A DNA stretch of 64,000 bases, from positions 35,045-99,044 of the IMG/VR virus record IMGVR_UViG_3300044825_000698. The stretch is one strand, 5' to 3'. Origin of the DNA: a virus. Below the pieces are notes generated by a model. The model ran no database searches. It was not told the DNA's origin and worked only from the letters and a program-made list of their open reading frames with translations. The position numbers and the translations under genes were made by a program. Every line of letters begins with the position of its first letter. Within the stretch, counting starts at the first letter, position 1. Of this stretch, positions 42,577-62,008 are shown piece by piece.

Positions 42577-42691
42577 CCTTTATGACTCGTTGTTTGCCCG
42601 GCAGTGAGGGCAGACTGGGGGGGTCGGAGCAGACAGCCCCGACACCGGGTGTCTCACCGTGAGACAGCCGGGCAACTCAGAAAGGTCAGCC

Positions 42692-43402
42692 ATGTCCACC
42701 ATCACCACCACCCTCGTGACCCCTGCGGTCACCCTCTCACCCGTCGAGGCCACCGTCACCTCGGCCAAGAAACTGACCCAGGCCGAGCGCACCGTCGCAT
42801 CGGCGTTCGCACACTGGGCCAGCGTGTCCGATCAGGCCGACGAGGCCACCCTGCTCCTGACCGTTCACCTGCTCGCCAACGAGAGCGTGTCGGCTCGCCG
42901 TGCGTCCGAACTCGCCACCGAGGTGCTGGGCACCAGCCGTGGCTGGTCCAAGGACAAGGTCACCGCCGTTCGCTGGACCGCTCCCGTGTGGGAGTTGCTG
43001 GCCTCGCCCGATCACCAGGCCGACGACTACCTGCTCGACGAGGATGGCGAGCGTCTGACCGTGGCCGACCTCATCTCCGAGGTTCGTACCATCGCCAGCG
43101 TCATCGGCTCGGCCAAGGTCCGTGAGGCTCTCGCCAGCGTCGACGAGCCGTCGGTCGTGGCATACATCTCGGCCCTGCGTGACGCTCGGGATGCCAAGGC
43201 TCTCGGTGCCGAGAACACGCCCCCGGCAGGCGACGAGGCCGACGACGAGGCCGAGGCCGAGGCCGAGACCAAGTCGGGCTGGACCCTCGACCACGCCCTC
43301 GCCACGGCCATCGCCAAGGCTCGCAAGGAGGGCATCTCGGATGCCGACATTCTCGCATCGTTCGCCCTGGCGGTCACGACCCTCAACACGGAGGGTGTGT
43401 GA
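42692..43402 (+). CDS. Hypothetical early protein
   Basis: GAAAGG RBS; high GC at third codon positions. Confidence 0.7.
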   Translation: MSTITTTLVTPAVTLSPVEATVTSAKKLTQAERTVASAFAHWASVSDQADEATLLLTVHLLANESVSARRASELATEVLGTSRGWSKDKVTAVRWTAPVWELLASPDHQADDYLLDEDGERLTVADLISEVRTIASVIGSAKVREALASVDEPSVVAYISALRDARDAKALGAENTPPAGDEADDEAEAEAETKSGWTLDHALATAIAKARKEGISDADILASFALAVTTLNTEGV

Positions 43403-43542
43403 CCGTCAGCGGTCCGGGCCGGGCCGTGGTCTCCCCCTACCACGGCTCGGCTCATCCATCGCCCTGTCTCAGCGTGAGACACGGCCTCGGCGCAACCGTC
43501 GCCGTGTCCCATCACCACCAACCGACCCAGGAGATCACCGCC

Positions 43543-43773
43543 ATGTCCATCGACTATTCGACACCCGAGTTTCCTGCCGACGAGTTTCCGCCCGACTACA
43601 ACTTCTCGGCCCTGTACAGCCTGTTCGTCGCCCATGTCGCCCTGCTCGACCCGAACGACGAGCAAGGCGTGGAGTGGCTTCTGACCCAGGCCCGTGGCCT
43701 GTGTCGGCGGTACTTCGTGGCCGAGTCGTACGTCGAGTCCACCGCCAACGAGTTCGTCGACCGCATCCTCTGA
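43543..43773 (+). CDS. Hypothetical protein
   Basis: AGGAG RBS. Confidence 0.65.
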   Translation: MSIDYSTPEFPADEFPPDYNFSALYSLFVAHVALLDPNDEQGVEWLLTQARGLCRRYFVAESYVESTANEFVDRIL

Positions 43774-43813
43774 CCCGTCTCACTCTGAGACACCAACCAC
43801 CAAGGAGACCACC

Positions 43814-44086
43814 ATGCGTTATGTAGTAATCGCCAGCGTTACCATCACCGACGAGTGGGGCTGGCGCACCACCCGGCAGGTGCCGACCTTCCTGGTCTAC
43901 GCCTGCTCCAAGACCAACGCCGAGACCATCGCCCTCGATGTTGTCTCGTCGGCTCAGGGCAACACTCGGGCCACCTACTCGGTCGAGGTCGCACTCGACG
44001 AGGGTCCGTTGTCCGAGTTGGTCGCCAGCGAACCCAGCACCGACCGCATCCTGGCCGAGGCCCGTGCGCTCGGGTACGAGGTCTGA
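43814..44086 (+). CDS. Hypothetical protein
   Basis: AAGGAG RBS. Confidence 0.65.
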   Translation: MRYVVIASVTITDEWGWRTTRQVPTFLVYACSKTNAETIALDVVSSAQGNTRATYSVEVALDEGPLSELVASEPSTDRILAEARALGYEV

Positions 44087-44180
44087 CCGTCTCATGCTGA
44101 GACACGGCTCCGTCGCAACCGGGGCTGTGTCCAGCAGTGCCACACCCACCTGTTAGCCTCTCTAATCGAAAGGAACCACC

Positions 44181-44909
44181 ATGCCCATCACACCGCCCAG
44201 CCCACGCCAACTCGACTACATCCGCACCCTCGTCACCGAGCGTGTCCAGGCCATCACGGCCCTGGCCGACGACGAACGCAAGCGTCTGCTGTCTCAGCCT
44301 GAGACAACCAGGGATGCGTCGAACCTGATCGACCGCCTGCGTCGACTGCCTGCCGACCCCAAGCAGGTCGACGCTGGTGCCCAGGCCAAGATCGACGGTC
44401 TCGTGGCCGTGCTCGATCAACTCGATGCCCGTGACCGTTCGTTCGCCAGCGACCTCGTACGGTCGTTCAGGCAACGGGGCGACCTGTCCGAACGCCAGTG
44501 GCCGTGGGTCGAACGGCTCACCGCCAAGGCCACGGCTCCCAAGGTCGAGCCTGCCGAGCCGGGCCTCTACATGGTCGACGGGAACATCGTCAAGGTGTAC
44601 CTGACGCAGAACCGCAGGCTCGCCACCAAGGTGCTCCACGCCAACGGCTCGCACGGCTCGTTCTCGTACTCACCGGGCTGGCTCGCCAAGGTGCGCCCCG
44701 AGCATCGGCTCACCGAGGAGCAGGCCCGTGCGTTCGGCAAGCAACACGGCTTCTGCTGTGCGTGTGCGCTCGATCTCGATGACGACCGTTCGCTGGCGGT
44801 CGGCTACGGCCCGGTCTGTGCCAAGCGGTACGGCTGGTTCTACCCATCGGCCAAGCAGGCCAGCGAGATGCTCAACCGTCCCGTCGATCTAGCAACCGTC
44901 TCAGCCTGA
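44181..44909 (+). CDS. DUF6011 domain protein
   Basis: C-terminal CCAC...L.D..S...GYGPVCA. Confidence 0.75.
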   Translation: MPITPPSPRQLDYIRTLVTERVQAITALADDERKRLLSQPETTRDASNLIDRLRRLPADPKQVDAGAQAKIDGLVAVLDQLDARDRSFASDLVRSFRQRGDLSERQWPWVERLTAKATAPKVEPAEPGLYMVDGNIVKVYLTQNRRLATKVLHANGSHGSFSYSPGWLAKVRPEHRLTEEQARAFGKQHGFCCACALDLDDDRSLAVGYGPVCAKRYGWFYPSAKQASEMLNRPVDLATVSA

Positions 44910-44933
44910 GACACTCAACAAGGAGAACCACCA

Positions 44934-46478
44934 ATGACCATCATCGACACCAAGACCATCGTCGAAGACGATGCCATTCGTCTCTACTACGAACTGTCAC
45001 GCAAGTTCGGTTGGCAGGGGACATTCTTCACCCGTGGTGATGCCAGGGACTCGTGGGAGAACTACCACGAGCAGACCAAGCCGTTCACCGACGAAGTGTG
45101 GGAGACCGTGCGTCAGTCGTACTACTGGCGCAGGGCGTTGCCCGACAACCTGACAGCCGAGGGACTGAGCATCGTCAACGATGCTGTGTCCGAAGCCATC
45201 TACCCTGTCTCAGCCTGAGACACCAACGAAAGGAACAGCAATGACCACCACCATCACCATTCCCGTCGAGATCGAGAACCTGCTCGACTCGATTCTGTAC
45301 GCCGGGGCGTTCTCGACTTACTCCTGGTATTCACACCTCGCCGTCGCCAATGACGGTCGCCGGGCCTCGGTCGGCATCTACACCAACGAGGGACACACGG
45401 CCACGGTCAGTCGTATTCTCGACGCTCGCACCCTGGCCGAGACCATCGAGCGCATCGTCAGTGAACGACTGCTCGGATGGCAGGATGTGCTCCACGGTGC
45501 TCGCAACGACGACTTCGATGCCAACTCGGCTGACACCGTGCTCCAAACCGCCGTGCTCGGCAAGGTGGTGTGGGGCTGATGGCAACGCTCACCAACATCG
45601 ACAAGCCCTGCCGTGGTCGTGACTGCGACCAGCAGGCCAGCGTCTACGCCATCGACCCAGCCCCCGATGGCTGGGGCGACTGGTACTGCGACGACTGCCA
45701 GCCCAGCAACTGGTGGGTCATCGACACCATCGAACGAGTGTCTCAGCATGAGACAGAGGGAGACAAGTAATGGAAGCGAGTGATGTCGTTGCCCTGGACT
45801 GGCTACACAGCCTGTTTCAGGAACTGGAAGATCAGGGAGTGGAGTTGCCGATGGGCGACTACCACTATGTGTACGGACTCATTGAGAACATCAGAGACAG
45901 GGAGAGCAAGTAATGGAAACCAAGACCTACACCGTCGACATGACCATCCGTGTCTATGTCGAAGCAACCTCGGACGCAGAGGCACAGGCCAAGGCCGTGG
46001 ACCTCTACGCAGGGTGGTCGCCCGATGGCATCGGGCAGTACGGGAATGTCCTTTCCCGTGAAGGAATGTGGTACCTGTGCGAGCACGGCGACGAGACCGA
46101 TGCTCAGGTATGGGACCCCTACAACAAGGAGAGTGTCTGAACATGGGAGCCAACTTCGCCCACGACCTCGCCAACGAGGACTTCGGTCTGTCGTTGGAGC
46201 AGGCCGTCACCATCCACCTCACGGCCAACCATTACCCGGCTGTGCCGACGATCATGGTGCCGGTGTGTGTCCAGGCCATCACCTGCGCTGACGGTGGTGC
46301 GTGGGACGACCTCGTAACCCTGCCCGATGGTGTCTCATACCGAGACAGCAACAAGGCTCCGGCCTACGCCATCATCGAGGCGTACCACCTCGGTGCGTTC
46401 CTCAGCGACGACGAGGACTACAACGACTACGGGTGTGGTAAGTGGGGATGCCAAGAGTGCTACCCCGATGCGGAGTAG
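44934..46478 (+). CDS. Run of six small hypothetical genes (44934-45218, 45241-45579, 45579-45770, 45770-45913, 45913-46140, 46143-46478)
   Basis: RBSs and overlapping stop/start codons. Confidence 0.6.
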
Positions 46479-46562
46479 TGACAAACTTCACAAAGAGGGT
46501 CCGTCATTATGCCCTCTAATGCCCCTACACTGACCTCTGTTATCCATCAGAAAGGAACCACC

Positions 46563-48014
46563 ATGACCAGCGTCGAGGACTTCCTCGCCAACCTTGGCAA
46601 GACCACGCCAGCACCAGCACCTGTCGTGCGTCAGCCCGTCGCCGTGCCCACGCTCGCCCTGCCGTTGCTCCCGTACCAGCAGGAGGCCGTGCGGTTCGCC
46701 CTCGGTCGTAGCGAGTCGTACCTCGCTCTCGACATGGGCCTCGGCAAGACGGCGTGCGCCATCGCCATCGCCGTGGCCTCGCTGTCTCAGAATGAGACAC
46801 CGCTCGTCGTGGTGCCCCCGTCGCTCCGCACGAACTGGGTGCGTGAGTTCCACAAGTTCGCACCGAGCGTGCGTGTGGCCGTGCTCTCGGGCACCAAGCC
46901 CCACGCCCTGCCGACCGCCGATGTCTACATCATCGGTGACTCGACGGTTCAGCACTGGGCACCGTCGCTCGTGGGCCAGGTCGATGCGATCATCGTCGAC
47001 GAGGCGCACCGCCACAAGAACCCCGATGCCAAGCGTGCCAAGGCTCTCAAAGACATCGCTCGCACCCTGTCGGGCGTGCGTGTGCTGATGAGCGGTACGC
47101 CCACGCCCAACGGTCGCCACGCCGAGTTGCCTGCTCAGGTCGAGATACTCGGCCCGACCGCATGGGACGAGATCGGTGGCAAGGGCAAGTTCTGGAACCA
47201 CTTCTGCCCCAAGGTCGACCAGTGGTCCCGTGGCAACGCCTACACCGAGGAACTCCACGACCTGCTCCACGGTTCGTGGATGCTTCGCAAGCGTCGTGGT
47301 GAGGTGCTCGATCTCCCCAACAAGGGACGCTCGGGCCTCCACATCGAGGGCCGTGGCACCGCTGTCCGCAAGTACATCCAGGCCGAGGAAGACCTGATCT
47401 CGTTCCTCCACGGCGAGGGTCGTTCGTGGGAGGGCGCACAGAAAGCAGAGGCTCTCGTCAAACTCACCACGCTCCGTCATCTCGCTGGCGAGGCCAAGGT
47501 CGAGGCCGTGGCCGAGCACATCATCGACCTGCTCGACGAGCCGGGCGGTGTGTTCGTCGTGGCCGAGCACCACGATGTCATGGACAGGCTGGCCGACCGT
47601 CTGCTCAAACACGGTGTGGCAACCATCCGTGGTGGCATGACGGATGCTCAGAAGACCGAGGCCGTCGATGCGTTCACGAGCGGTAAGAAGCGTGTTCTTA
47701 TCGGTCAGGTCATCTCGGCAGGCGTGGGCCTCACGCTCCACGGCAACGGCATCAACCACCGTGTCGTGTTCGCTCAACTCCCGTGGACCCCGGCTGATCT
47801 TCGCCAGGCCGAGGACCGCCTCCATCGCATCGGGCAGACGCACGATGTCAGCGTCGAGGTGACCCTCTGCTCCATCGACGGTCGCTGGACCATCGACGAG
47901 CGTCTGTGGGGTCTGCTGGAAAGCAAGGCCGACTCGACTGGCCGTCTCATCGATGGCGAGGCCGAGGTGTTGCTCGACGACATCGTCGGAGGTGTGCTCG
48001 ACACCTACCGCTGA
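46563..48014 (+). CDS. SNF2 / HARP-like SF2 helicase
   Basis: LLPYQ, DMGLGKT, IIVDEAH, MSGTP, GVGLTL, QAEDRLHRIGQ. Confidence 0.92.
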   Translation: MTSVEDFLANLGKTTPAPAPVVRQPVAVPTLALPLLPYQQEAVRFALGRSESYLALDMGLGKTACAIAIAVASLSQNETPLVVVPPSLRTNWVREFHKFAPSVRVAVLSGTKPHALPTADVYIIGDSTVQHWAPSLVGQVDAIIVDEAHRHKNPDAKRAKALKDIARTLSGVRVLMSGTPTPNGRHAELPAQVEILGPTAWDEIGGKGKFWNHFCPKVDQWSRGNAYTEELHDLLHGSWMLRKRRGEVLDLPNKGRSGLHIEGRGTAVRKYIQAEEDLISFLHGEGRSWEGAQKAEALVKLTTLRHLAGEAKVEAVAEHIIDLLDEPGGVFVVAEHHDVMDRLADRLLKHGVATIRGGMTDAQKTEAVDAFTSGKKRVLIGQVISAGVGLTLHGNGINHRVVFAQLPWTPADLRQAEDRLHRIGQTHDVSVEVTLCSIDGRWTIDERLWGLLESKADSTGRLIDGEAEVLLDDIVGGVLDTYR

Positions 48015-48049
48015 TGTCTCAGCCTGAGACATAACAAAGGAGAACCACC

Positions 48050-48190
48050 ATGCCCGAACAACTGATCTGTGACCTCTGTGGTGAGGAGACACACGGCGAC
48101 ACCTCCGAGATGTTCACCGTGCTCACCAACAAGGGCACACGCACCGAGCGTCATTGTTTCGACTGCGACCCACCGGACGAGGACGACTAA
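48050..48190 (+). CDS. Small Zn-finger protein
   Basis: Manually translated CDLC...CFDC; strong RBS. Confidence 0.5.
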   Translation: MPEQLICDLCGEETHGDTSEMFTVLTNKGTRTERHCFDCDPPDEDD

Positions 48191-48283
48191 CCCTGCCACA
48201 CCCCCCTGTTACCGTCTCATAGTGAGACAAGACAGCGTGCCAACCGTGCGTCTGTCCAAACCACCAAACAAAGGAGAACCACC

Positions 48284-48847
48284 ATGCCCAACCATTGTCT
48301 GAACTTCACTACCGTCACCGGCCCTGTCGATGACATCCAGCGTTTCTATGACGCTGTGCTCGTCCCCGATGAGGACATCAACGAGAACACCACCGACTGC
48401 TTCTGCCTGGCCCGTCTGTTCCCTATCCCTGAAGATCAGGTAGGCCGGTCGTACTGGTGGTGCGTCGAGAACTGGGGCACCAAGTGGGGCGACTACAACT
48501 ACCTCACGGGTGACGACGATGACATCTGGCAAGCCCCGGACACCCTGTCGTTCTCGTACCACACCGCCTACGCACCGTTCAGCGAGAACTTCTGGCAGAA
48601 AGTCACCAGCGACTGGCCGACGCTGTACTTCACCACCTCGTACCAAGAGGAGGGCATTGGTGTGCTCGGTGCGATAGCCGCTTCCGATGGCCTGGTCGAG
48701 GTGAACGACACCGAGTACCCCGAGTTCGACGGGCCGTTCGACGGCGACGAGTACCTCGACTTCATCGACGAGGTCGACCGTCTACGCAACGAGGCGTGCG
48801 ACACCGTCATCGAGATGCTCGACGCACGACTGGAGGTGAACAAGTGA
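48284..48847 (+). CDS. YubB/DUF1281-like ferredoxin-fold protein
   Basis: MPNHCLN...WCVENWGTKW...HTAYAP. Confidence 0.75.
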   Translation: MPNHCLNFTTVTGPVDDIQRFYDAVLVPDEDINENTTDCFCLARLFPIPEDQVGRSYWWCVENWGTKWGDYNYLTGDDDDIWQAPDTLSFSYHTAYAPFSENFWQKVTSDWPTLYFTTSYQEEGIGVLGAIAASDGLVEVNDTEYPEFDGPFDGDEYLDFIDEVDRLRNEACDTVIEMLDARLEVNK

Positions 48848-51705
48848 TGGCCGATTACAACGGATGGGCCAACCACGCCACATGGAATGTGGCCCTGTGG
48901 CTCAACAACGACGAGGGTCTGTACCGACTCGCCCGTGAGTACACCAGGCGTGCTCGCAATGTTCGGTACGAAGACTTCGTGAACCAGTACCTCGTCGAGG
49001 ACTCGTACGCCACGCCTGACGGTGTCGCCTGGCTCGGTGACGAACTCGACTACGACGCTCTCGACGAGATGCTCGTCGAGTTAGGAGAGTGACAATGACC
49101 AACAACTACACGACCGCTCTACGCCGTGTGCGAGAGCAACTGCCTGCCAGCGACCGCAAGTACACACGGGCGCAGATCAGAGAGGTCATCACCATCGCTG
49201 AGGCTCGCTACCCCGAGGCGCACAATGTCGACTGGCGTTGTGCGTTCTTGGAGGGTGTGCTTCTCGCTTACTCCGGTGCCATCGTCTTCGGTGGCGTGGC
49301 AACCGCCAGCCGTGGATGGAACGACGCTCTGTTCGCAGGGGTCGCACTTGGCGAGGCCATGTACGACGATGAGCACGAGATCATGTACGACGACGAGGGT
49401 TACGACTACTACGAGGAGGACCAATGACCAACGAAGACTGGAAAGCCATCGCTGACGACATCTACCACGCCGTGTGGCACAACATCCACTGGTGTGAGTG
49501 CCGAGAGAAGTACGCCCTGCCCGAGTACCGGGCGTGGCGCAACGACACTAACGGGGCGATGCCCCCATCACCGATGTTCACCGACCTCTGCCCTCGATGC
49601 CGTGCGGTCGCTCGATACGAGCGAGTCGCCTGCTCCGAGGAGTGGAACAAGACGCTCGACGAGATCGAGATCAAAGCATTAGGAAAGGTAACCACCCGTT
49701 AGACAGTGTGACGAAGTTCACACAAAGCATCCACCACTTTGCCCAAACAGGGCCGTAGACTGAACCACACAGCAAGCAAGTGTCTCACCGTGAGACACAG
49801 AAAGGAAACCACCATGACACCCATCATCGACAAGTACGAGAACGAGTGCCAGTTGTACGCCGAGTCGCTGAGGTCCAACCTCACCGACATTCTCAACCGC
49901 TTACAGAGTCTGTTGGACGACACACGAGTGTTCAGCACCTTGGCTACCGCCCAGCGCATCGCCCGTAGTGCTGGGTCGTGTGGTCCCATCGGCTCTCTGT
50001 GGGAGTCGGCGGTGGCGAACGCCAGCCACCTCGTCGCTCTCCACAAAGTGCTGGAAGACCTGAAGACCGAGGCTCTCCTGCGAACCATCGAAGAACAGGA
50101 GGTCTGACCATGCCGAACCTGAGGACCGCTTACCTCGTCATGTGCGAGGAGTGCGGTCGAGTGTTCGACCTCGTCAACCAAGACGACGAGGCCGACTGGG
50201 CACTCGGCCATGACTGTGAAGACAACGAGGAGGAACAATGACCAAGCCGAAGATCAACACCTTCCCGGCCACGCCGGGGTACATCGAATGGTGTGAGGCC
50301 AACGGCCTCGACCCCAACGACGAGAACAACCAAGACTCATACTCCGAGTGGAAAGCGAACAACCGATGACCATCATCAACGACCTGACCTGCCTGCGCTG
50401 TGGGGCGCACGGACCTGACATCCAGTTCCCGATCTTCCCACTCTCGGGCGCACCGTTTGGCTCGGTCTGCGTGGACTGCGATCACCAGTCACCGTGGTCC
50501 GAGCGACCGCTCGCCTGCGTCGACTGCGAGATCGAACTCGACGAGACCGAGGCGTGGGGCAACCGCAAGTACGGCGACCCTCGATGCGAGGACTGCCACC
50601 AACAGAACGAAGGAGACAACGAATGAACCCGACACAGACCAAGCACTTCGACATCACCATGGACAAGCCTGAGGCGTACATCGTGTCCCTCAAAGTCAAC
50701 GGTGAGGCCGTTGTCCTAGTGAGGCTTGAGAGAAACGCAGACGGCTCTCTCGATCTCAATGTGTTTGAGACGGCGAACGACGACATGGAGATCGCCAACA
50801 CCTACCCCGAGTTCTTTCAGGAGGTGACCGCATGAACAAGGCCGTGCGTTACTGGGTCAGACGGCTCGTTATCTCGTTCCCGTTATGGCTCGCCCTGGTT
50901 CACGAGACCGACACTCGCCGGTTCGACAACGGACAGAGAGTGTTCGGTGACCACCAGGGCATGGTCCTGTGGGGACTGATGTTCATCCTGCTATGGGTCT
51001 CACTCGATCTGTATGTTCAGGACATGAGAGCGTCTCAGCGTGAGACAAAGGAGGAGCAATGAAAGAGAACTGGTACGACAAGTGGGAGGCCGACTACCTC
51101 GGCTCAGGCGACGAGCGCACAGTCTTTGAGCAGTGGTTCGTTGATACCCGTGGCAAGCAGTACGCCGACGACTCGTCGGACACAGACCTGCTCAACGAGT
51201 TCCGAGACACCCAGGTATGGGTGGACTCGTTCCTCGACTGGGCGTTCGTAATGGAAGCAGACCACCGCATCGAGCAATACGCAGAAGAAACAAGGAGCAA
51301 CCAATGACACACCTAATCATCCATCCCGGTACGGGAACCATCGTCAACTCCGACGAGTGCTGGTTCATCGACGCTAACGCTCTCCCCGAGGGCGTGGACA
51401 TCGAAGACCTCGCCTCGACCGAGTTGTTCGACATCCCCGAAGACATCCCGGCCACACCTAACACGGGGTTCTCTTACTCGGTGTCTGATCTCGATAAAGA
51501 CATCGAGGACGACATCTTCGTGAGCGACCACATCGAGTGGCTCAAAGCCCTGCCAGCCCACGAGCGTGAGTTCATCATTCAGAACGCCTTTCAGATCATG
51601 CTGAACCAGGTCGACTTCTGGAATGAGTGGTGGGACGCTCTCCGCTACTCGATCAGTCTGTCGAAGCGCATCAGCGAGACATCAGTCGAGGAGGAGCCGT
51701 TCTGA
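48847..51705 (+). CDS. Run of small hypothetical genes (48847-49092, 49089-49427, 49424-49702, 49814-50107, 50110-50241, 50366-50626, 50623-50835, 50832-51062, 51059-51307, 51304-51705)
   Basis: Coupled ORFs with RBSs; first contains YNGWANHATWNVALWL; several Cys-rich. Confidence 0.6.
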
Positions 51706-52000: not shown

Positions 52001-53251
52001 ATGACCACCGCCAAAGCCCTCCGTACCGGACTCCCGGTCATCATCAACGCAGGCCCGTACAAGGGTCTCAATGCCATCGTCGTCGATGCCACCGTCTTCC
52101 CTGACGGCCACGAGCATCAGCGCAAGGTCGTCGTCGACATCGACGGTGTCGGCCAGTCGTACATCATCCCCAAGCAACTCGACCTCGTCGGTCACGTCCG
52201 TCCGTCCGTCGCCCCGGTCGTGCCGTCCGTCCCCCGTGTCGAAGTGTCTCAGCGTGAGACGGTCTCGATCTCCGTCCCCACGAAGATCACCTCGCTCGAC
52301 GACCCGGCTCTCGACGAGTACCGCCCCCAGCGCAAGGGTCTCCTGCGTGAGTACGTCTCTCGTACGCTCGCTGGCGGTCACAAAGACATCGAGGTGCTGG
52401 CCTCGTACTGGGAGAACCGCCGTGACGGTTACGCCACCAACGTCGGCCTCGTGGGCGACACGCAGTCGGGCAAGACGATGCTCGTCGAAGTGATGTCTCA
52501 CGTCATCGCCAAGAAGATGGGCCTCAGCAAGCCCCTCCCGGTGTTCACCCTGTCGGGTTCGTCGGCCATCACCGACCACGACCTGTTCGGTCAGTACCGC
52601 CCGACGCTCGTCGATGGCGAGGAGCGCATCGTGTGGATGGAGGGTCTCGTTGCCCTCGCCTGCCGACTCGGTGGCATCCTGTACCTCGACGAGGTCAACG
52701 CCATGCCGGGCAACGTCACCTCGGCTCTCCACCCGGTGCTCGACGACCGTCGCCAGTTCGTCAACATCCGCAAGCCCGTCCCCGATGGACACGGCGGTTA
52801 CAAGCCCGAGGTCGTCAATGTCTCGACCGACCTGTGGGTGCTGTGTACCTACAACCCCGGCTACGCAGGCATGGCCAAGACCAACGAGGCGTTCGCCAAC
52901 CGCTTTGAGTGGCTCACGTGGGATTACGACGAGGAAGTCGAGAAGCGTCTTATCAAGTCCCCGGCCATCCGTCTGCTCGGCCAGGCTCTCCGTGTCGCTC
53001 GTGACAACCGAGCGGTGACGACTCCGGTCGGCACCTCGGCTCTCCAGCGACTGGAGCGCAACATCGCCAGCCTCGGCCTCGACTACGCCGTGTGGTCGTT
53101 CCTCGGTCAGTTCACCAGCAAGGCCGAGAAAGCCAAGGTCCAGTCCATCATCGACGAGCGTTCCATCTACGCAATGCTGGAAGCCGAGGTCGACGCAGAG
53201 TCCCGTGTCGAAGATGTCCAGCCGACCGACGAACCCATCAACTCACTCTGA
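52001..53251 (+). CDS. MoxR/CbbQ-type AAA+ ATPase
   Basis: GDTQSGKT, LYLDEVN, TYNPGYAG, AFANRF. Confidence 0.88.
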   Translation: MTTAKALRTGLPVIINAGPYKGLNAIVVDATVFPDGHEHQRKVVVDIDGVGQSYIIPKQLDLVGHVRPSVAPVVPSVPRVEVSQRETVSISVPTKITSLDDPALDEYRPQRKGLLREYVSRTLAGGHKDIEVLASYWENRRDGYATNVGLVGDTQSGKTMLVEVMSHVIAKKMGLSKPLPVFTLSGSSAITDHDLFGQYRPTLVDGEERIVWMEGLVALACRLGGILYLDEVNAMPGNVTSALHPVLDDRRQFVNIRKPVPDGHGGYKPEVVNVSTDLWVLCTYNPGYAGMAKTNEAFANRFEWLTWDYDEEVEKRLIKSPAIRLLGQALRVARDNRAVTTPVGTSALQRLERNIASLGLDYAVWSFLGQFTSKAEKAKVQSIIDERSIYAMLEAEVDAESRVEDVQPTDEPINSL

Positions 53252-53267
53252 TAAGAAAGGGATAACA

Positions 53268-55403
53268 ATGCCTAAGCAGAAGATAGACAGCGAGATCGTC
53301 AAGGCTCGCAACCGTGCCCGGTCACACTTCCGCCGGGAGTCCAAGGCATACGAGGAGCGGTCATTGGCCGAGGCCCGTGAGGCTCTCAACCGTGCTCGCT
53401 ACCGTGCCACGCTCAACAAGGACGAGGTCAACCGTCAGGCCAGCATCGCATCGTGGGTGACCTCGATGTCGATTCCGGTCCTCGCCTCGCTCGACATCAC
53501 TCCCGAGATGGATGTCAATGTCATGGACGACCCTCGCATGGTCGCCAACGGCATCACGGCATCGGGCTGGACCGACTTCAGCAAGATTCACGTCCGTGTG
53601 TCGGACAAGTTCTACAACGAGAACGACCCGGCTCAGTTGTCCCGGCTCATCGCTCTCACCAAGGGCTTGATCTACCACGAGGCTGGTCACATCCTCTACA
53701 CCATCCCGTACCCCCAACTCGTACAGCGTGCGTCGGAGGCTGGCTACAAACTGTCGCCCTTGCCCGGTTCTTTGCTCGGCCCGACAGGAAGCATCACCAT
53801 CCAGGACGAGTACGAGTACAAGTGGGTGTGGAACCTGCTGGAGGACCAGCGCATGGAGTGCGCCGTGGTTCGTACCTCTCCGATCATCGAGCGGTACTAC
53901 CGAATCGTCGTGCTCGATGCGGTGATTCGTAGCATCCCGGCAGAGCAGGCGCACCGTGCGTGGCCGTTCATCACGGGTCGGTCTTACCTGCCCCTATCGG
54001 TCCTGAACGATTACCGCCGTAAGGCCGTCCAGTACGCACACGACAACGATCTCGTCGACGCTCTCGTCGCCATCGACCAAGGCGTGCGTGACTACAAGCG
54101 TGCGAAGACCGAGGTCGACATGGTCAAGGCTGTCGAGAAAGTCACCCCGGCCCTGCGCTTGTGGCTCAAACAAGAGCGTGCCAACGGCGGTGGCGACGGT
54201 GGCAGTGTGGATGACCACGGCCATCAGAGGCGACGTGAGCCGGGCCGTATTAGTCCCGACTCGTCAGCCACCGAAAGCGGTGAGGGCTGGGGTATTCCGA
54301 CTCCACCGACCAAGGCCGATGACCGTCAGGACGACGACAACAACCAGGGCGGTGGCGAGGTGACTGACTCGACCAGCGACACCCAGCGGTACGACAGCGC
54401 ACCGTCTCAGGGTGAGACAGACGAGGAGTCGGATAACGAGACATCCAATAACAAGTCCGATGGCAAGGGTCAGCAGGCCGATGGTCAGGACGACACGACC
54501 GACGATGACACCGACGAGTCGGATGAGTCGGACGAGCCGGGCACTGGTGTGGGGGCGTACGGAGACAACGCCCCCATCCTCGATGGCATCGAACAGACGG
54601 GTCTCAATGACCTGCTCGACGATCTCATCGACAACGTGGTGACCAACGATCAGATTCACGACCTCGTGACTCAGGTCAATGACTCACTGCGCCGTGGTGT
54701 GCCTCGTGACCCGAGCCTGTCCCCGATGCCTACGGAACTGCTCGCTCAGGTCGAGGAGGTCCGTGCTGGGATGCTCAACACCCTGGCTCCTCTCGCCGTC
54801 CAGGCCGACCCGGCATGGCGGTTCCGTCAGGAGTCGGGCGTGTTCGACCCGGTGACGTTCATGTACCGTGAGCCGGGCGACACCGACTACTGGGTCGACC
54901 TCGACGACACGGGTGCGACGGGTCACGACCTGGCCGTGTCAGTCATCCTCGACGTGTCGTACTCGATGTCCGAGAACACCGACGCTCTGTCGGTCGGTGC
55001 GCTCGGCATCCGTATGGCGTGCGACGAACTCGACATCCCGTGTACCGTCAGCACGTTCTCGGACAACGGGTACCTGTACTTCGATGCGACCGATAAGACG
55101 GAGCCTCTCCGTGTGTCGGCCCATGGCGGTACCGAGCCGACCGAGGCGTTGGAAGACCTGCCCAACCAGCGTTACGGCAAGGCCCGTCACCTCGTGGTCG
55201 TGTTCACCGATGGTGCGTGGAGCCACTCGGCTCCGATGTTCTCTCAGGTGCGTGAGCCTGGGATGTACATCCTGGGTGTCGGGTTCGGTCTCGGAGTGGC
55301 CGAGGCCATCGCCCAGCGCAAGCCCGACGTGGCCGTCAAGATCGAGTCGGTGTCGCAGTTGCCCGCCGAGGTGACCAAGGCACTCATCGGTTATCTCGTC
55401 TGA
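53268..55403 (+). CDS. CobT-like protein: HEXXH domain, acidic linker, VWA domain
   Basis: HEAGH, NLLEDQRME, MIDAS DVSYSM, GGT.P, FTDG. Confidence 0.85.
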   Translation: MPKQKIDSEIVKARNRARSHFRRESKAYEERSLAEAREALNRARYRATLNKDEVNRQASIASWVTSMSIPVLASLDITPEMDVNVMDDPRMVANGITASGWTDFSKIHVRVSDKFYNENDPAQLSRLIALTKGLIYHEAGHILYTIPYPQLVQRASEAGYKLSPLPGSLLGPTGSITIQDEYEYKWVWNLLEDQRMECAVVRTSPIIERYYRIVVLDAVIRSIPAEQAHRAWPFITGRSYLPLSVLNDYRRKAVQYAHDNDLVDALVAIDQGVRDYKRAKTEVDMVKAVEKVTPALRLWLKQERANGGGDGGSVDDHGHQRRREPGRISPDSSATESGEGWGIPTPPTKADDRQDDDNNQGGGEVTDSTSDTQRYDSAPSQGETDEESDNETSNNKSDGKGQQADGQDDTTDDDTDESDESDEPGTGVGAYGDNAPILDGIEQTGLNDLLDDLIDNVVTNDQIHDLVTQVNDSLRRGVPRDPSLSPMPTELLAQVEEVRAGMLNTLAPLAVQADPAWRFRQESGVFDPVTFMYREPGDTDYWVDLDDTGATGHDLAVSVILDVSYSMSENTDALSVGALGIRMACDELDIPCTVSTFSDNGYLYFDATDKTEPLRVSAHGGTEPTEALEDLPNQRYGKARHLVVVFTDGAWSHSAPMFSQVREPGMYILGVGFGLGVAEAIAQRKPDVAVKIESVSQLPAEVTKALIGYLV

Positions 55404-55532: not shown

Positions 55533-55892
55533 ATGGAAACCACCAACATCACCGAGATCGCAGTCCGGTATCTCAAGACCAGGGAGACCGTCGAGTCAGC
55601 CTCCATCGCCCTGGCCGAACTGGACAGCCAACTGAAGGAGTACTTCCAGCAGACTGGCAACGAGTCCATCGAAGTGGATGGTCGCAAGATCAGTGTCGTC
55701 CACAACAAGCGTCGATCATTCGACATCACCGCTCTTCGGAATCTCGTCAGCCCGGCGATGTTCCGCAAGATCACCGAGCCGTCCGTCAAGACCAAGTTGT
55801 GGGATTCGGCTGTCGCTCTCGGTGAACTCGATAGCAAGGTCATCAAGAAAGTGGAAGCGACCACGTTCTATGACCAACTCAAGGTCAAGTAG
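55533..55892 (+). CDS. Hypothetical protein
   Basis: RBS and upstream promoter-like motif. Confidence 0.7.
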   Translation: METTNITEIAVRYLKTRETVESASIALAELDSQLKEYFQQTGNESIEVDGRKISVVHNKRRSFDITALRNLVSPAMFRKITEPSVKTKLWDSAVALGELDSKVIKKVEATTFYDQLKVK

Positions 55893-56050
55893 GGAGGCTG
55901 TATGTCAGCAACGACATACGAGTGCCCTGCCTGTCACCAGCGCATAACGGTCTACGTACCGCTGGTGGAGAATCCGACCTGTACCCGTCACACGGGTGGG
56001 GGTCGCCAAATGAAACCAGTTACAGACAACAAGGAGAACAACAAGTGAGC

Positions 56051-56437
56051 ATGGACATCAAGACCATTGTCATTCTGACTGTCGAGGGTCGCATCCCGGC
56101 AGAAGAAGGACTCAACCTCATCGCACAAGAGTGCGGTGTTACCACCGACAGCCTCATCCAGGCTCTGACATCGAGCGAGACGGTCACGACCCTCTCGGCC
56201 CGTCGTTGGACGATGGAAGACGACGGAACCGTCATCAAGATGTGGGCCTCGGGAGCATCAGCCGGGACCATCGCACGTGCGTTGGCCCGGACCCGTAACA
56301 GCGTGTCACAGCGTGTCCACTACCTGCGTGGTCAGGGCCACGACTTGGAGAAGCGTGAGACCGCAGGCATGAACCGGATTCGTCAGAACCGCACTAACCG
56401 CAGTGGGGCAACTCAACTGAAGTTGCCTGGGTTCTGA
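56051..56437 (+). CDS. HTH protein (GcrA-like N-terminal HTH)
   Basis: WT.EDD...IKMW.SG.SAGTIARAL.RTRNSV..R. Confidence 0.7.
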   Translation: MDIKTIVILTVEGRIPAEEGLNLIAQECGVTTDSLIQALTSSETVTTLSARRWTMEDDGTVIKMWASGASAGTIARALARTRNSVSQRVHYLRGQGHDLEKRETAGMNRIRQNRTNRSGATQLKLPGF

Positions 56438-56502
56438 GAACACGACCTGAGCACGTCGAGAAACTGCTCACCAACAACCAGTCCCTAACAAGGAGAATCA
56501 CC

Positions 56503-57909
56503 ATGAGATACCTACCGAACATCCACGAAGAGACCCGTAAGGCCGATAAGGAAGCCATCGCAACGGTTCTGAAGACCTTTGCCGATACTCCTCTGACAGC
56601 AGGCGATGTCACCGCACTCCTCAAGGACGTGCCGAAAGAAGTGGTCAACGGACTGCTGTGGCGTATGGCCAACAACAAGACCAAGTGGCCCAACATCAAG
56701 CGCACCAACTATGCGTCTTATGTGTGGGACAGCAAGGCCCGTCCCCCTCGTACCCCTCGTCCTGCCAAGCACAAGACCGTCGTCAAGCACAAGGTCGAGC
56801 AGATTCGTCCTGTCGTCGAGGCTCCTGTCGCCAAGCCTGCCGAGTGGGAGACCATCACGACCATCGAGGACAAGATCATCATTCGTCGCCACGACGGCAC
56901 GGTGTGGGTCGCCAAGCCCCTGTCGGTCTGACATGACCTACACCGAGTTCATCATCAACGCCACGCAGTACTTCGGTGCTCATCGTCGGGAGATGCGGTT
57001 CGGTCAGGCGGTCTACAACTGCCTGGCCACCGCTCGCCCCGACATCGCATCGCAGATCGTCGACACACCACTCGACCCGTTCCACAAGAACAGTGTGAGT
57101 GACGACGTGTGGCAGTTCATCAAGGAGAAGTGGTGACCAAGAAGATCGACCCTCTTACCGGGGCTAACTACGACATCGAACTCAGGATGTACATCCTGTA
57201 CCATGGCCTCACGGTCGACGAGGCTGTCGAAGTAATGAAAGTGACCGAGTCGTACAAGGCTCGGGATGAGAAGTTCAACCAAATCACTCAGAGAGGAAAC
57301 GCAGATGAAAATGCCATTCATAAGACGTTCAAAGGCGAGTAAGGCGATAAGCCACCTCATACAAACGCACATCAATGTCGTTCGTGAAATCTTCATGGTG
57401 ACTGACACCATGTCCGACGTACTCATGTCCCCGGCGGTCGACGAAGCGTTTCGTAATGCTCTCGCTACCACCGGTGGAGACCCGACAGCATCGGACGATC
57501 TTTACGAGGCTTATCGCCTCTTACGTCAGAAGCACTACGTCATCGTTGATACTTACGACTCTCTCCTTGAGGAGCAGGTCATCGACGAGATCGTTCACGA
57601 AGAGACCAGGGACATCGACCGAGAGATTCAGCGGTTCTTGTCCGTCGGAGGTCTGTGATGAACCTACGAGACCTGCCCGACTTCAACGATCTCTTCACTC
57701 GGTTCCGCTCTGACTACGACTACGAGAAGTCGTTCCAACGGTGGTGGGCCGAGGTGGAGGAGTCGTTCCAAGACATCCTCGACGACAAGGGTGCCGACTG
57801 GCTCAAGCACATCATCCGCTGTTTCTGGGAACAGTCGCCAATGGCACTCCGCATCCTCGATGATCAGTTCTTCGACGAGATTCGTAAGTGGCGTGATAGC
57901 CATGCGTGA
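56503..57909 (+). CDS. Run of hypothetical genes (56503-56931, 56933-57136, ~57133-57342, 57305-57658, 57655-57909)
   Basis: Coupled ORFs with RBSs. Confidence 0.55.
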
Positions 57910-58152
57910 GGTGCTGTGTATCATCGGCCTCATCGCCGTCATTCTTTACTGGTCACGCCAGTAACAGGCGTAAGGAGAACATCGCAGGGACCGGCCCTCT
58001 TCCTTTCTGTGGTCGGCGTTCTCCTCCCTCTCCCATTCGTAGTCCCTCGTGGCGCACTTTCCATTTCTTCAGTGCTGACACGAGGTAATGGGAGAGGGTG
58101 ACACCTGCTAGACTGAGAAGCGTTCCAACCGTGGCGATGTCCAAGGAGACCT

Positions 58153-58629
58153 ATGAACCTGTGCCGTGGACCGCTGTGTAGCAAACCAGTGGTCGCCAAG
58201 GGGCTGTGCCAAGCCCACTACAAGCAGTTGAGCCGGGGTAACTCGCTCACCGTGATCGAAGACCCGACCCAACAGACACCCGAGACCAAGTTCTTCAACA
58301 CGATCAAGAAGCAGGAGAACGGGTGCTGGATCTGGGATGGCCCGATAGATAAGGGCTACGGGCGTATGTACGTCAATAACAAGGCGTATCAAGTCCATAG
58401 GTGGTCGTATGAGTTCCATAAGCACGTCTCGCTCCGTAAGGAAGAGACGCTCGACCACCTGTGTCGAAACACTCTGTGCTGTAATCCCGAGCACTTAGAG
58501 AAGGTGTCGTTGATCGAGAACATCGAGAGACAGCACCTGTACCACGCTCTCAACGCCGAGATCAAACGGCTGAGAGAGTTCCTAACCGACATCGGGTACA
58601 ACCCCGACACTCTTATGAAGGAGATGTAA
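58153..58629 (+). CDS. HNH endonuclease
   Basis: CWIWDG...GYG...VHRWSY...LDHLCRNTLCCNPEHL....EN. Confidence 0.9.
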   Translation: MNLCRGPLCSKPVVAKGLCQAHYKQLSRGNSLTVIEDPTQQTPETKFFNTIKKQENGCWIWDGPIDKGYGRMYVNNKAYQVHRWSYEFHKHVSLRKEETLDHLCRNTLCCNPEHLEKVSLIENIERQHLYHALNAEIKRLREFLTDIGYNPDTLMKEM

Positions 58630-58792
58630 TGACCGAAACGCTAGACATCCAGGAACTGCTCGATGAGATCGACGAGATGCTCAAGATGACCGTCGGGCAT
58701 CAGATCGTGTCGGCATCAGAGATGACAGATAAGTTGCTTGACTTACGTGGTGTAGTTGGTAAACTGAATACACCTAACAAGGAGGACCACCA

Positions 58793-59044
58793 GTGAACGA
58801 CATCTACAAGGAAGTAGAAACTCGGCTTAGTGCCAAGGCTCTTGCTTCATGGCAGACCAAACGTGTGGAGCGCAAAGACCAACTGATCGCCTGGGCGTAC
58901 AGTTGTGTTCGTCACCCTGGGAACATCCACCTGTGGCCGAACGACGAACTAACTGAAGAGCAAGGACTTGATCTTGCTGTCAAGTTCCTCGATGACAAAC
59001 TAAATGAGGAGAACCACCATGCAGACATTCGTCCCCTACAGTGA
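58793..59044 (+). CDS. Hypothetical protein
   Basis: AAGGAGG RBS. Confidence 0.55.
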   Translation: MNDIYKEVETRLSAKALASWQTKRVERKDQLIAWAYSCVRHPGNIHLWPNDELTEEQGLDLAVKFLDDKLNEENHHADIRPLQ

Positions 59045-59447
59045 CCACCTGAAGACAGCCCGTGTGCTGGACCGCCAGCGTCTAGGCAAACAGCGCGTCG
59101 AGACGCTTCAGATTCTCAACGCCCTTAGCCCTTTCTACGATAAGAAGGGTTGGAAGAACCACCCTGCCGTCAAGATGTGGCGTGGCCATGAGCACGCTCT
59201 CATCGAGTACGGCCTGTACATCTGCCACGAGTGGGTCAAGCGTGGCTACACCGACACGTGCGCTGGCAAGATGACGGCCATGTTGCCCCTGTTCGATGAG
59301 CGGTCGGCGTTCATGCCCGACTGGTGGGGCGATACCGCCATTCACGACTCACACAAGTCGAACCTCGTCCGTAAGGCTCCCGATCATTACGGCTCGTGGT
59401 GGCCTGAGGTGTCACCCGACCTGCCGTACGTGTGGCCGGTGGCGTGA
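59019..59447 (+). CDS. Pyrimidine-dimer DNA glycosylase (T4 endonuclease V / MSMEG_6728 family)
   Basis: MQTFVPY...LDRQRLGKQRVE..QIL...HPAVKMW...SHKSNL..K..Y...LPYVWP. Confidence 0.88.
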   Translation: MQTFVPYSDHLKTARVLDRQRLGKQRVETLQILNALSPFYDKKGWKNHPAVKMWRGHEHALIEYGLYICHEWVKRGYTDTCAGKMTAMLPLFDERSAFMPDWWGDTAIHDSHKSNLVRKAPDHYGSWWPEVSPDLPYVWPVA

Positions 59448-60046
59448 TGACAAGGAAAGGTAAGGAGATACGGGAGTTGGCTTCTTACGCTTTCTCTATT
59501 CCACCTAATGGAAGACCCGGTAACAAGTCAACCGGTGACTGGGGTATCAGGAAAGAGCGTAACGCCAATAGGGACGCCAAGACAGATTCCATGGTCGCTT
59601 TCGCCTCGTTTGTTCATGGGACCATTACACCTGGGTGTGGTTGTGAAGAGTGTGATTCACGTCGAGATTTAGTAATGACACTGATCTACAACAAAGACCT
59701 CGATGTCAAGAAACTAGGACAGGCCATTTACGATGGTCCGTCTACAAGTGGCACTGACTGGTTCAACGCCAAGTGCCCTGTATGTGGTGCCTCACATTCG
59801 ATAAATGGGGTGTTTGGTACCATCATGGGAGAAAGGTGTTACCGTCGCTATGCGTGTAAGCGTCTCAATGAGATACTCAGGGAAATGAACGTAGAGCCGA
59901 AGAGACGGGCTATCCACTTCAACAACAACCTGTATTGGGTCGCACGAAACCTACCTAGTATTCGTAAAGACCACGAGTTGCTTGATGAGGCACTAACCCT
60001 CGCTGATAACTTGCTTACTATGTCTGACTACCCGTCAGTACGCTAA
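59444..60046 (+). CDS. Hypothetical Cys-containing protein
   Basis: Long ORF; GCGCEEC and CPVC. Confidence 0.55.
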   Translation: MMTRKGKEIRELASYAFSIPPNGRPGNKSTGDWGIRKERNANRDAKTDSMVAFASFVHGTITPGCGCEECDSRRDLVMTLIYNKDLDVKKLGQAIYDGPSTSGTDWFNAKCPVCGASHSINGVFGTIMGERCYRRYACKRLNEILREMNVEPKRRAIHFNNNLYWVARNLPSIRKDHELLDEALTLADNLLTMSDYPSVR

Positions 60047-60433
60047 GGCCATCAGATCACGTACTCGGGCTTTCTCCAGCCCGTATGGGGTCGTCCACAC
60101 CACGTTGGCCACCCCGGCATCTGCCAGGTCGTCAGAGCACCTAGCGCACGGCTTGGCGATGCCTAACTCTCCGCTACGGGTGATTCGGGCGACGTAGATG
60201 GTCGCCCCCTCCGCATCCCCAGCACGTCGCAGGGCAACCTCTTCGGCATGGTACGAGACATCACCGATGTCGACTTGTGACGGATTATTCCGATAGCGGT
60301 TGTAACCAGTAGCGAGTACACGCCCACGACGGACGAGAACAGCCCCAACACGCCATCTGTTATGTGGGGCTTGGTCGGCTTGGAGTAGAGCATTACGCAA
60401 CCACCTTATGTCAGAGGATGTAATCGTGAGCAT
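60035..60433 (-). CDS. Cytidine/dCMP deaminase-family protein
   Basis: VGAVL...GYN, HAE, PCARC. Confidence 0.85.
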   Translation of the reverse strand: MLTITSSDIRWLRNALLQADQAPHNRWRVGAVLVRRGRVLATGYNRYRNNPSQVDIGDVSYHAEEVALRRAGDAEGATIYVARITRSGELGIAKPCARCSDDLADAGVANVVWTTPYGLEKARVRDLMALAY

Positions 60434-60890
60434 TGTCGATGTTGTCGTAAATCTCTTTGTGCGTCAGCCCCGTGGACTTAGCCACCGCTGAGATCACGTC
60501 TTTGCTGTATTTGTAGAACCACTGGTCGGTCTTCCTCGGATACGTATTGTTGACGACGAAGAAGGCGCACCGCAGAACCTCTGCCAGGGTCACGTTCGTT
60601 GTACGAACGCCCTTACTGACCTTACGACGCTCTTTCTCTGTCAGACCGCCGTAGATACCGTCTCGCATTGAGTTGTTGATGGCGAACTCGGCGCACGGCT
60701 TGCGTACCGAACACCCGTAGCAGATGAGTTTGGCGGTGGTCCCGTTGCCTCCCTGGACGGGGTAGAAGACGTTCACGTCGACACCCTTACACTTGGCGTT
60801 GTCACGCCAAGACGAATCCTTATCCGGGTGCGACAAGGACGGCAGGCATACTTCGGGTGGTAGTTGATTCACAGTGGTTTCTTCTTTCAT
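60411..60890 (-). CDS. WhiB-family transcription factor
   Basis: WRDNAKC...FYP...CYGCSVRKPC...GIYGG.TE.ERR. Confidence 0.9.
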   Translation of the reverse strand: MKEETTVNQLPPEVCLPSLSHPDKDSSWRDNAKCKGVDVNVFYPVQGGNGTTAKLICYGCSVRKPCAEFAINNSMRDGIYGGLTEKERRKVSKGVRTTNVTLAEVLRCAFFVVNNTYPRKTDQWFYKYSKDVISAVAKSTGLTHKEIYDNIDNAHDYIL

Positions 60891-62008
60891 GCGTTAGATA
60901 TTAGGTCGGCTAGACGGGAAACACCAGTCGAGATGTCTCGGGCCTTCACCATTTCACGGTTTTGTTCTGCTTCTTCTTTACGTGTCTCATAGTGAGACAG
61001 TTCCCTGATGTGCCTCGACCACTGGACGGGGTTCTTAGCGAGTCGACCAATACCAAGGTCTTGCTGTAGTTCGATGTAGGCATCGAGTGTGCTGGCGATA
61101 AACGGAACTCCAGCGGCGGCGTATTCAAGTCCCTTGATATCGGACTTACAACGGTTGAAAGGCATCTTGGTTAGAGGCACTAACCCAATGTCCATCACCA
61201 TGAGGTTGGGGTACTCGCTGTGTGGGCACAACGGCATCGTCTCGACTTCACCGTCGAGGACACCGACACGAGATGCGAATGATGGAGCCTTGGGAACAGT
61301 GCCACCGTGGAACAGACGAATCGAATCAGTACGGAGGAACGCCGGGAAGATGCCTTTCAATATCTCCAGGTCACCTGACCGATGATTAGTGCTTCCTACC
61401 CACCCGACGAGAGGACGAGGGGTGTCCTGATGTTCGTGGGGTGTGAACCGAGCGACATCGACAGTGTTCTTGGAAATCTCAATGGGAGCACGGCAGAACT
61501 CAGCCACACGGCTCGCCAAGTACGGAGTACTTGAGATGATGAGGTCCGACCGACCGATGATGTTTCGGTAGTGGTTGAAGTTAGCCCGAGGGTTGACCTT
61601 CGGGTGGTTATGGCGAAAGGCATCGTTAGTGGGTGATAGTCCCCAATACCAGTCGTCAATGTCGTTGATGATCTTGATGCCCTGCTTCTGCGAAGCGACC
61701 ATGTGATCGGAAATACCGTCGTACATCAACCTCTGCATCAAGATGACATCAACATCATGTAGTTCACCCGATGTATCCATGATGCCGAGATGATCTCGGA
61801 CCCATGTCAATACACCGTGGACAATGTCGAACGGCAGGTGCTCGATGTACTGGCCAATACGTGCCCAGCCCGAGCCACCCCACCGTTCAACATTGTCAGG
61901 AGTTCTACTGGGGTGTACCCAGTCTCCTGATGCGATGCCTACTTTCAACACGCTTGGAACGTCAGGCCGACTTCGGCTTACGACGGGTCCAAGTGAGTGC
62001 GAAAGCAC
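60887..62008 (-). CDS. GT-B glycosyltransferase
   Basis: DIDDW, VGWVGS, DIGLVPL...FNRCKS.IK.LEY.AAGVP; true start may be downstream. Confidence 0.8.
   Translation of the reverse strand: MLSHSLGPVVSRSRPDVPSVLKVGIASGDWVHPSRTPDNVERWGGSGWARIGQYIEHLPFDIVHGVLTWVRDHLGIMDTSGELHDVDVILMQRLMYDGISDHMVASQKQGIKIINDIDDWYWGLSPTNDAFRHNHPKVNPRANFNHYRNIIGRSDLIISSTPYLASRVAEFCRAPIEISKNTVDVARFTPHEHQDTPRPLVGWVGSTNHRSGDLEILKGIFPAFLRTDSIRLFHGGTVPKAPSFASRVGVLDGEVETMPLCPHSEYPNLMVMDIGLVPLTKMPFNRCKSDIKGLEYAAAGVPFIASTLDAYIELQQDLGIGRLAKNPVQWSRHIRELSHYETRKEEAEQNREMVKARDISTGVSRLADLISNA

Follow-up and report, generated by a model that had tools for sequence, protein, structure and literature searches.

A dispersed, lineage-specific palindrome as a candidate operator network on the early arm of an apparently lytic 99-kb myophage

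What does a phage do with one short palindrome repeated 17 times over a single gene arm, and what reads it? The question is raised by the right-hand 64 kb of the 99,044-bp virus contig IMGVR_UViG_3300044825_000698 from IMG/VR (this whole stretch of 64,000 nucleotides is termed the window), in which the sequence GTCTCA-N3-TGAGAC recurs beyond a divergent gene junction. The contig ends share an exact direct repeat of 127 bp, a length typical of assembler k-mer overlaps, and the genome is probably circularly assembled, the repeat representing an assembly overlap rather than real ends. Myovirus late genes (sheath, portal, large terminase, major head protein, collagen-like fibres) lie on the minus strand in window 1-42 kb. 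A plus-strand arm of small genes starts after the junction at ~41.9-42.65 kb, where G+C climbs from ~0.51 to ~0.63. This early arm encodes a DUF6011 protein, an SNF2 helicase, a MoxR-type ATPase, a GcrA-like protein and an HNH endonuclease, and is rich in lineage-variable small genes without assigned function. An actinobacterial host is indicated by the two WhiB-like genes of the phage. Since neither tyrosine or serine integrases nor helix-turn-helix (HTH) proteins of the Cro/CI type (PF00589, PF00239, PF01381) were matched across the complete genome, the phage appears to be lytic; no direct search for a gp71 homologue was made. Megablast of both window halves against 50,697 phage records yielded zero matches, leaving the phage without close nucleotide relatives among deposited phages.

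The palindrome occurs in 16 exact copies and one copy with a single mismatch (at 46332, where TGAGAC is changed to CGAGAC), while 100 dinucleotide-preserving shuffles contained 0 exact matches. All 17 copies are confined to window positions 42,651-60,998, and a scan of the 99,044-bp genome detected no further copy (reversed-pattern control 0). Twelve of the 17 reside within the first 5.6 kb (42,651-48,228), beyond which the spacing widens; the closest pair is 198 bp apart and distances range from 0.2 to 6.6 kb. Both arms are invariant in the exact copies and the 3-bp spacer is variable. The flanking position -1 is T (11 copies) or C (6), and position +15 is A in 16 of 17, extending the palindrome to (T/C)GTCTCA-N3-TGAGACA. 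In all these respects, number, absence from 1-41.9 kb, crowding next to the junction, nearly constant arms and free spacer, a preliminary description of this DNA proved accurate; its start positions were one base lower because the flanking Y had been counted in. The set is clearly non-random and functional.

The placement of the copies is telling because the 12.8-kb stretch holding 16 of them is only 8.8% non-coding, and still 11 of these 16 early-arm copies sit at gene junctions: seven wholly in non-coding DNA, two over a stop codon and two within the final codons of a gene. The distance from the end of a site to a following start codon is 12-26 nt in eight cases. Among the non-coding copies, site 1 (42651-42665, GTCTCA-CCG-TGAGAC) lies 26 nt 5' of the ATG of the first early gene, site 2 (43466-43480) is intergenic and directly followed by a hairpin, CAACCGT-N6-GTCC, which we call element B, site 3 (43777-43791) is found 4 nt past a stop codon and 22 nt ahead of the next ATG, and site 4 (44089-44103) 3 nt past a stop codon and again followed by element B. 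Site 11 (48016-48030) begins 2 nt past the helicase stop codon and 19 nt ahead of the next ATG, site 12 (48214-48228) is overlapped by a promoter-like motif and then followed by element B, and site 13 (49782-49796) is intergenic, 17 nt ahead of an ATG. The TGA of the right arm serves as stop codon of the DUF6011 gene in site 6 (44898-44912; next ATG 21 nt on) and of the gene at 44934-45218 in site 7 (45207-45221). Sites 8 (45740-45754) and 14 (51032-51046) occupy last codons and end 15 and 12 nt, respectively, ahead of the next start. The remaining copies are embedded in genes, namely site 5 (44291-44305) in the DUF6011 gene, where it is translated as S-Q-P-E-T, the imperfect site 9 (46332-46346), site 10 (46784-46798) in the SNF2 helicase gene (L-S-Q-N-E-T-P), site 15 (52246-52260) in the MoxR-type AAA gene and site 16 (54404-54418) in the 732-aa gene that comes after it. 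Site 17 (60984-60998) is an outlier in a minus-strand glycosyltransferase-like gene, ~95 nt upstream of the start of a WhiB-like gene. Copies at stop codons and inside genes had been noted before, and we count two over stops and seven exact ones within genes.

All seven exact in-gene copies use one and the same reading phase (S-Q/H-x-E-T), and two copies in the other usable phase provide the stop of their host gene. The imperfect copy at 46332 lies within a gene in this stop-generating phase, where a perfect site would introduce an in-frame TGA that the T-to-C change abolishes. Because of this conflict with coding, that is, the single phase, the supplied TGA stops and the stop-avoiding mismatch, the sequences indicate that selection acts on the nucleotide sequence of the in-gene copies itself.

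Relatives were gathered via the SNF2 helicase and comprise 28 loci from IMG/VR and 43 metagenome loci. Among them, the arms of the target phage with a free spacer recur only in L054 (84% helicase identity). Most lineages possess a palindrome of their own in which both arms are altered symmetrically: GTCTGAC-N-GTCAGAC plus GTCCCA-CCG-TGGGAC in L053 (80% helicase identity), GTCACAC-S-GTGTGAC in L066/77/79/80/81/82/87, TGCGTCAC-N-GTGACGCA in L069, TGTCCCA-TA-TGGGACA in L070/83, TGCCCCA-CG-TGGGGCA in L074/75/86, GTCTCAT-S-ATGAGAC in L076 (11 copies), TCTAAT-S-ATTAGA in L025/29/31 (14-16 copies), CCTAAC-N-GTTAGG in L071/19/27, CTAGT-N-ACTAG in L022/24 and TGTAAC-N-GTTACA in L005/6/55. A comparable set was not seen in the L016 group, L007, L010, L011, L028 and L032. 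One of these palindrome-free lineages features another repeated element: at L010:5,067-8,396, six genes open with the common start-associated sequence GGAGGCCCGTC-GTG-AGCGGTGAC, reminiscent of those known at gene starts in Cluster K mycobacteriophages.

The variants are found at matching positions. The site after the helicase stop codon recurs across many lineages, each time with the local variant, and, inside the helicase gene, the target site (LSQNETP) and the L053 site (VSDGQTP) share an alignment column. L070 and L074 have another such column in common and, as in the former pair, the residues differ to suit the local palindrome. Confinement to the early arm is likewise shared: in G004 (92.8 kb), 11 of 12 copies are located in the ~10 kb between a DnaA-box junction and the helicase with zero in the late region, and in G006 a 12-kb stretch out of 48 kb holds 16 of 16 copies. 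Compared between close relatives, the sites exceed their 30-nt flanks in conservation (100% vs 80%, 98% vs 90% and 96% vs 78%). Extending the survey to the whole genome and to relatives, as the preliminary description had proposed, thus revealed an arm-confined set in the target and variants at orthologous positions elsewhere, and these comparisons support the view that the sites are selected, arm-wide docking sequences, kept in position while changing symmetrically and overriding coding constraints.

What remains to be answered is what docks there. Our preferred interpretation, held with moderate confidence and resting largely on analogy, is that the palindromes are double-stranded DNA sites for one dimeric, probably phage-encoded early protein and form a dispersed operator or roadblock network over the early arm. 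We infer recognition at the DNA level, a reader encoded by the phage and repression of early genes upon binding. An early-made phage protein would dock on the palindromes as a dimer. At 48214, the motif TGCCAC-N10-TACCGT runs into the site. It is kept in L053 and L054, where a promoter-like arrangement with the own variant lies directly after the helicase stop codon, and across the three phages the palindrome starts within a conserved TGYCAC-N10-TAnnGT. Bound protein at 48214 and its counterparts in L053 and L054 would occlude this motif and block initiation. The other bound dimers, at gene junctions and within three long genes, may stand in the way of host RNA polymerase as serial roadblocks and, being densest near the start of the arm, could exert feedback control or a timed shut-off of early genes. 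Reader and sites would be re-specified jointly between lineages. The preliminary description had placed copies at promoter-like motifs at 42650, 48213 and 49781; only the second of these (48214 in our numbering) holds. A consensus promoter scan of the arm gave nothing above chance.

The roadblock mechanism is proposed because of the analogy with the stoperators of L5-type phages, for which blocking of elongating RNA polymerase has been put forward (PMC4557955, PMC9283540). In Cluster A phages (L5 gp71, Bxb1 gp69, TipsytheTRex), 18-30 stoperator copies are dispersed mostly over tiny intergenic gaps and start or stop codons; they are asymmetric sites of 13-14 bp that follow the direction of transcription and bind a monomer, and the phages are temperate with an immunity repressor (PMC6550527, PMC9283540, PMC4557955). 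The stoperator motif co-diverges with its reader between sub-lineages (PMC6550527). The comparison, drawn already in the preliminary description, is apt insofar as the target also has many dispersed copies of a single motif, 11 of the 16 early-arm ones at junctions, and the motif diverges between lineages of its group. In contrast to stoperators, the sites studied here are perfect palindromes restricted to one arm, the centre base in relatives shows no orientation bias, and the phage is without a match to an integrase or a Cro/CI-type HTH protein, the gp71 homologue, as said, not having been searched directly. A second parallel is offered by Streptomyces phage phiC31, whose sites, according to Smith and co-workers, are reportedly conserved inverted repeats of 17 bp. 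About 18 dispersed repressor binding sites are given for this phage (PMC4557955). Both are phages of actinobacteria in which many copies of a palindromic site occur, mostly in intergenic gaps of the early region, but phiC31 is temperate, its sites are read by c repressor isoforms and the sequences are unrelated.

Several observations weigh against the proposed network. The searches for a reader, covering ParB/KorB, HTH_36 and a series of tests on the first early gene, identified no reader protein, the arm yielded neither canonical promoters nor canonical terminators, and repression is purely inferred. The product of the first early gene (g1; 42692-43402, plus strand, 236 aa), which has site 1 just upstream, is a weak candidate. 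It shares SARRASE.A.E.LG..RGWSKDKVTAVRW, read as an HTH-like motif, with 15 homologues (88% down to 41% identity), and its AlphaFold model is all-helical (mean pLDDT 76.5). Against this candidate, g1 has no match in Pfam and PHROG, its model retrieves nothing at E <= 0.001 in a Foldseek search of the PDB, a profile search of 1.8 billion proteins recovered only the target's own lineage, and the putative recognition helix is almost invariant among the 15 homologues. A VIA wide search with the model reached a best Z of 5.8, which is helical-protein noise and includes P1 ParB at Z 4.8, the ESM Atlas returned only unnamed viral clusters, and a profile scan of IMG/VR gave nothing. In size and layout, g1 resembles the proteins encoded first in the early arms of G004 and G006, but hhalign detected no similarity between them and g1 (probability 0.2%). 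The 66-aa HTH_17 protein at 61962-62162, one of the binders suggested earlier, is unlikely to set site specificity: because its identity is 69-79% between lineages whose palindromes differ, it would be a poor specificity determinant. Presence or absence of conserved arm proteins likewise fails to separate palindrome-bearing from palindrome-free lineages. Three further points against a DNA-bound dimer concern the palindrome itself. L070/83 and L074/75/86 have even palindromes with a 2-bp gap, although the gap is 3 bp in a near relative whose flanks are almost the same, and a hairpin would explain this change more easily than a rigid dimer; long GC-rich hairpins replace the palindrome at the post-helicase position in other lineages; and three target sites directly adjoin element B.

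The latter points lead to the alternative that the palindromes act as transcribed short hairpins 5' of the next ribosome-binding site, read by a phage RNA-binding protein or nuclease in antitermination (similar to lambda N/boxB), in processing or stabilization of polycistronic mRNA, or in translational control. We regard this as rather unlikely. It would agree with the eight sites 12-26 nt ahead of start codons, with right arms that overlap the Shine-Dalgarno sequence in AT-rich lineages and with pairing preserved through the arm changes, and it would accommodate a gap of 2 or 3 nt depending on lineage, ordinary GC-rich hairpins in the same position and an abutting element B. Predicted RNA folding, however, is divided: GC-rich variants reach -5 to -11 kcal/mol, while AT-rich variants (TCTAAT-S-ATTAGA, CTAGT-N-ACTAG, TGTAAC-N-GTTACA) are essentially unstable at ~0 to -1.7 kcal/mol and nevertheless match the GC-rich ones in copy number and placement. 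In several lineages the symmetry reaches the +/-1 bases (T-S-A, C-S-G), which are unable to pair in a hairpin and serve no purpose there, and the centre base in relatives alternates between C and G without orientation preference. Invariant half-sites around an uncontacted free spacer are typical of DNA recognition, and an invariant stem with a free loop is the reverse of what most RNA-binding proteins recognize. Six or seven copies reside deep within translated genes, one G004 site lies in the array of DnaA boxes that precedes the first early gene, and no Rfam 15 covariance model matched window 41,000-64,000 at E <= 1. Duplex DNA is favoured because of the unstable AT-rich hairpins, the +/-1 symmetry, the flips of the centre base, the free loop, the copies in genes and in an origin array, and the use of the same sequence as iterons in HTH_36 genes of other phages (see below). 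The strand bias that the target shows at the centre base (C 10, G 2) was dropped as evidence for a role in RNA, as the common reading phase of the coding copies plausibly explains part of it.

Element B deserves mention in its own right. The hairpin, CAACCGT-N6-GTCC(A), occurs on the plus strand at 43,493, 44,116, 48,241, 51,886 and 58,126, 10-60 nt upstream of gene starts, three times directly after the GTCTCA-N3-TGAGAC palindrome. It is also present about seven times in L016, which is without palindromes, as well as in L025 and L005, and its stem changes look compensatory. Candidate roles are those of a 5' leader hairpin, of a terminator that has no U-tract and of an unusual promoter. One gene (window 48,284-48,847), always found directly after a palindrome or element B, encodes a 187-aa protein (phrog_12644) that contains the motif WCVENWGTKWG and is kept across lineages.

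Returning to protein-DNA recognition, the sites could serve loading, titration or organization of the origin-proximal arm rather than transcription, with an initiator using dispersed iterons, a ParB/KorB-like clamp or a host nucleoid protein as reader. The density of sites peaks beside the DnaA-box junction and drops with distance, as would be expected, and precedents exist. The KorB operator OB of the IncP plasmid RK2 is a 13-bp palindrome present in 12 copies around the replicon and read by one global regulator, KorB, a CTP clamp of the ParB family (PMC11790492). The target similarly repeats one palindrome over a replicon as presumed docking sites, but it is without a credible ParB or KorB, the best PF02195 (ParB_N) match being a 138-aa open reading frame with 14.3 bits at a cut-off of 26.3. 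The second precedent is sequence-identical. In unrelated phages, G002 and G003 (L051:7,715-7,827; L052:8,632-8,688 and 4,670-4,766), GTCTCA-N3-TGAGAC forms 3-5 iterons 21-22 bp apart inside a gene for an HTH_36 initiator that is followed by an IstB/DnaC-like loader in a lambda O-like layout. G003 has a second, inverted iteron plus AT-rich module 3.9 kb away, and G001 encodes an HTH_36-type protein and has seven dispersed copies. This identity renders the palindrome a plausible protein-DNA site. In contrast to the iterons of G002 and G003, the target copies are 0.2-6.6 kb apart, so that with a minimum spacing of 198 bp no iteron cluster exists, and no credible initiator of this type was recognized: HTH_36 gives only a 13.2-bit match, to a 438-aa protein with an HTH that scores as Crp-type, and phmmer searches of the target with the initiators of G002 and G003 as queries gave no hit, which led us to discard an HTH_36 initiator as reader. 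A conserved host factor is disfavoured by the difference in motif between relatives with 80% identical helicases. Taken together, a role in replication or partition appears unlikely.

The likeness to bacterial parS that had been pointed out in the preliminary description does not stand. The parS site is an even, 16-bp palindrome (TGTTNCACGTGAAACA) without a free spacer that is conserved across bacteria, whereas the present palindrome is an odd one of 15 bp with a free 3-bp spacer. Because it differs between close relatives, a universal site for host ParB is unlikely, and a ParB with an HTH was not found in the genome.

The junction that marks the start of the early arm (41860-42650) contains elements of its own. 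A DnaA-box array (TGTGGATAA) with six perfect boxes plus variants spans window 41,931-42,115, and junction arrays of this kind are also present in L007, L011, L028, G004 and G006. A second palindrome, TGTGACA-NN-TGTCACA, occurs in 4-5 copies (41985, 42273, 42309, 42560; window 41,985-42,576), is clustered in L007, L011 and L028 as well, and fits the CRP/GlxR consensus TGTGA-N6-TCACA. The 438-aa protein mentioned above, encoded outside the window at genome positions 21,007-22,323 (L098:2008-3324, minus strand), contains a winged HTH of the Crp type (PF13545, E = 1.4e-5) and is a possible reader of this second palindrome; alternatively, a host protein of the CRP family may do so. The motif GAATAGGGCTATT is conserved in the junction/origin region (target 41,874; L096 ~4,940; L097 ~4,950 and 5,000; shared by target, G004 and G006), and a low-complexity CA/CG-rich run with cacgcgca and cgcatacg repeats lies at window ~42,425-42,490 between the origin and the first early gene.

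It is very unlikely that the sites are primarily recombination linkers, that is, mobile regulatory cassettes of the PeSL or REP kind whose boundary repeats let co-infecting relatives swap early cassettes. Homology breakpoints do lie 4-19 nt from a site in five cases (L025/L029, L025/L031, L024/L022), in an arm full of lineage-variable small genes. The PeSL cassettes of T4-type phages are promoter-plus-stem-loop units between small early genes that coincide with mosaic breakpoints (PMC2839356, PMC4122927). The target sites resemble them in lying between small early genes and in being composite with element B in three cases, but PeSLs are longer units not kept in genes, whereas 15-bp perfect palindromes are at issue here, some of them in genes, with a promoter-like motif at one site only. 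Phage breakpoints are expected at gene boundaries, where the sites also sit, so that the five cases are confounded, and neither in-gene copies at orthologous codons with lineage-specific arms nor the genome-wide joint change of copies is accounted for. A secondary effect of identical 13-15-mers at gene boundaries on recombination is plausible by analogy. Two further ideas were dropped, a type IIS restriction site (GTCTC = BsmAI), as the motif differs among lineages, and N4-type hairpin promoters, prompted by the 6-7 bp stem and 3-nt loop, as no open reading frame exceeds 902 aa; a search of the target for a T7-like RNA polymerase was empty, though its positive control gave no signal either.

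Detailed knowledge of dispersed single-motif networks comes only from temperate phages (L5-type stoperators, phiC31) and plasmids (KorB). A similar logic is encountered here with a palindromic site in an apparently lytic 99-kb phage group, together with a natural succession of specificity switches at orthologous positions, some of them inside a conserved helicase gene. The variants constitute a ready collection of cognate and non-cognate sites with which the reader could be sought and the joint change in specificity of one protein and more than ten sites be followed, and should the reader shut off early genes, they would provide a compact, orthogonal repressor-operator family for actinobacterial genetics. 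It is even conceivable, if doubtful at present, that lytic actinobacterial myophages of a freshwater type carry an "address code" of ~10-17 sites in which reader and sites switch together, as between close relatives with GTCACA-N3 versus GTCCCA-N2 in near-identical flanks. Such a code may ensure lineage-specific control or mutual exclusion of co-infecting relatives, the sites doubling as joints for cassette exchange, and if it exists, it would amount to heteroimmunity without lysogeny.

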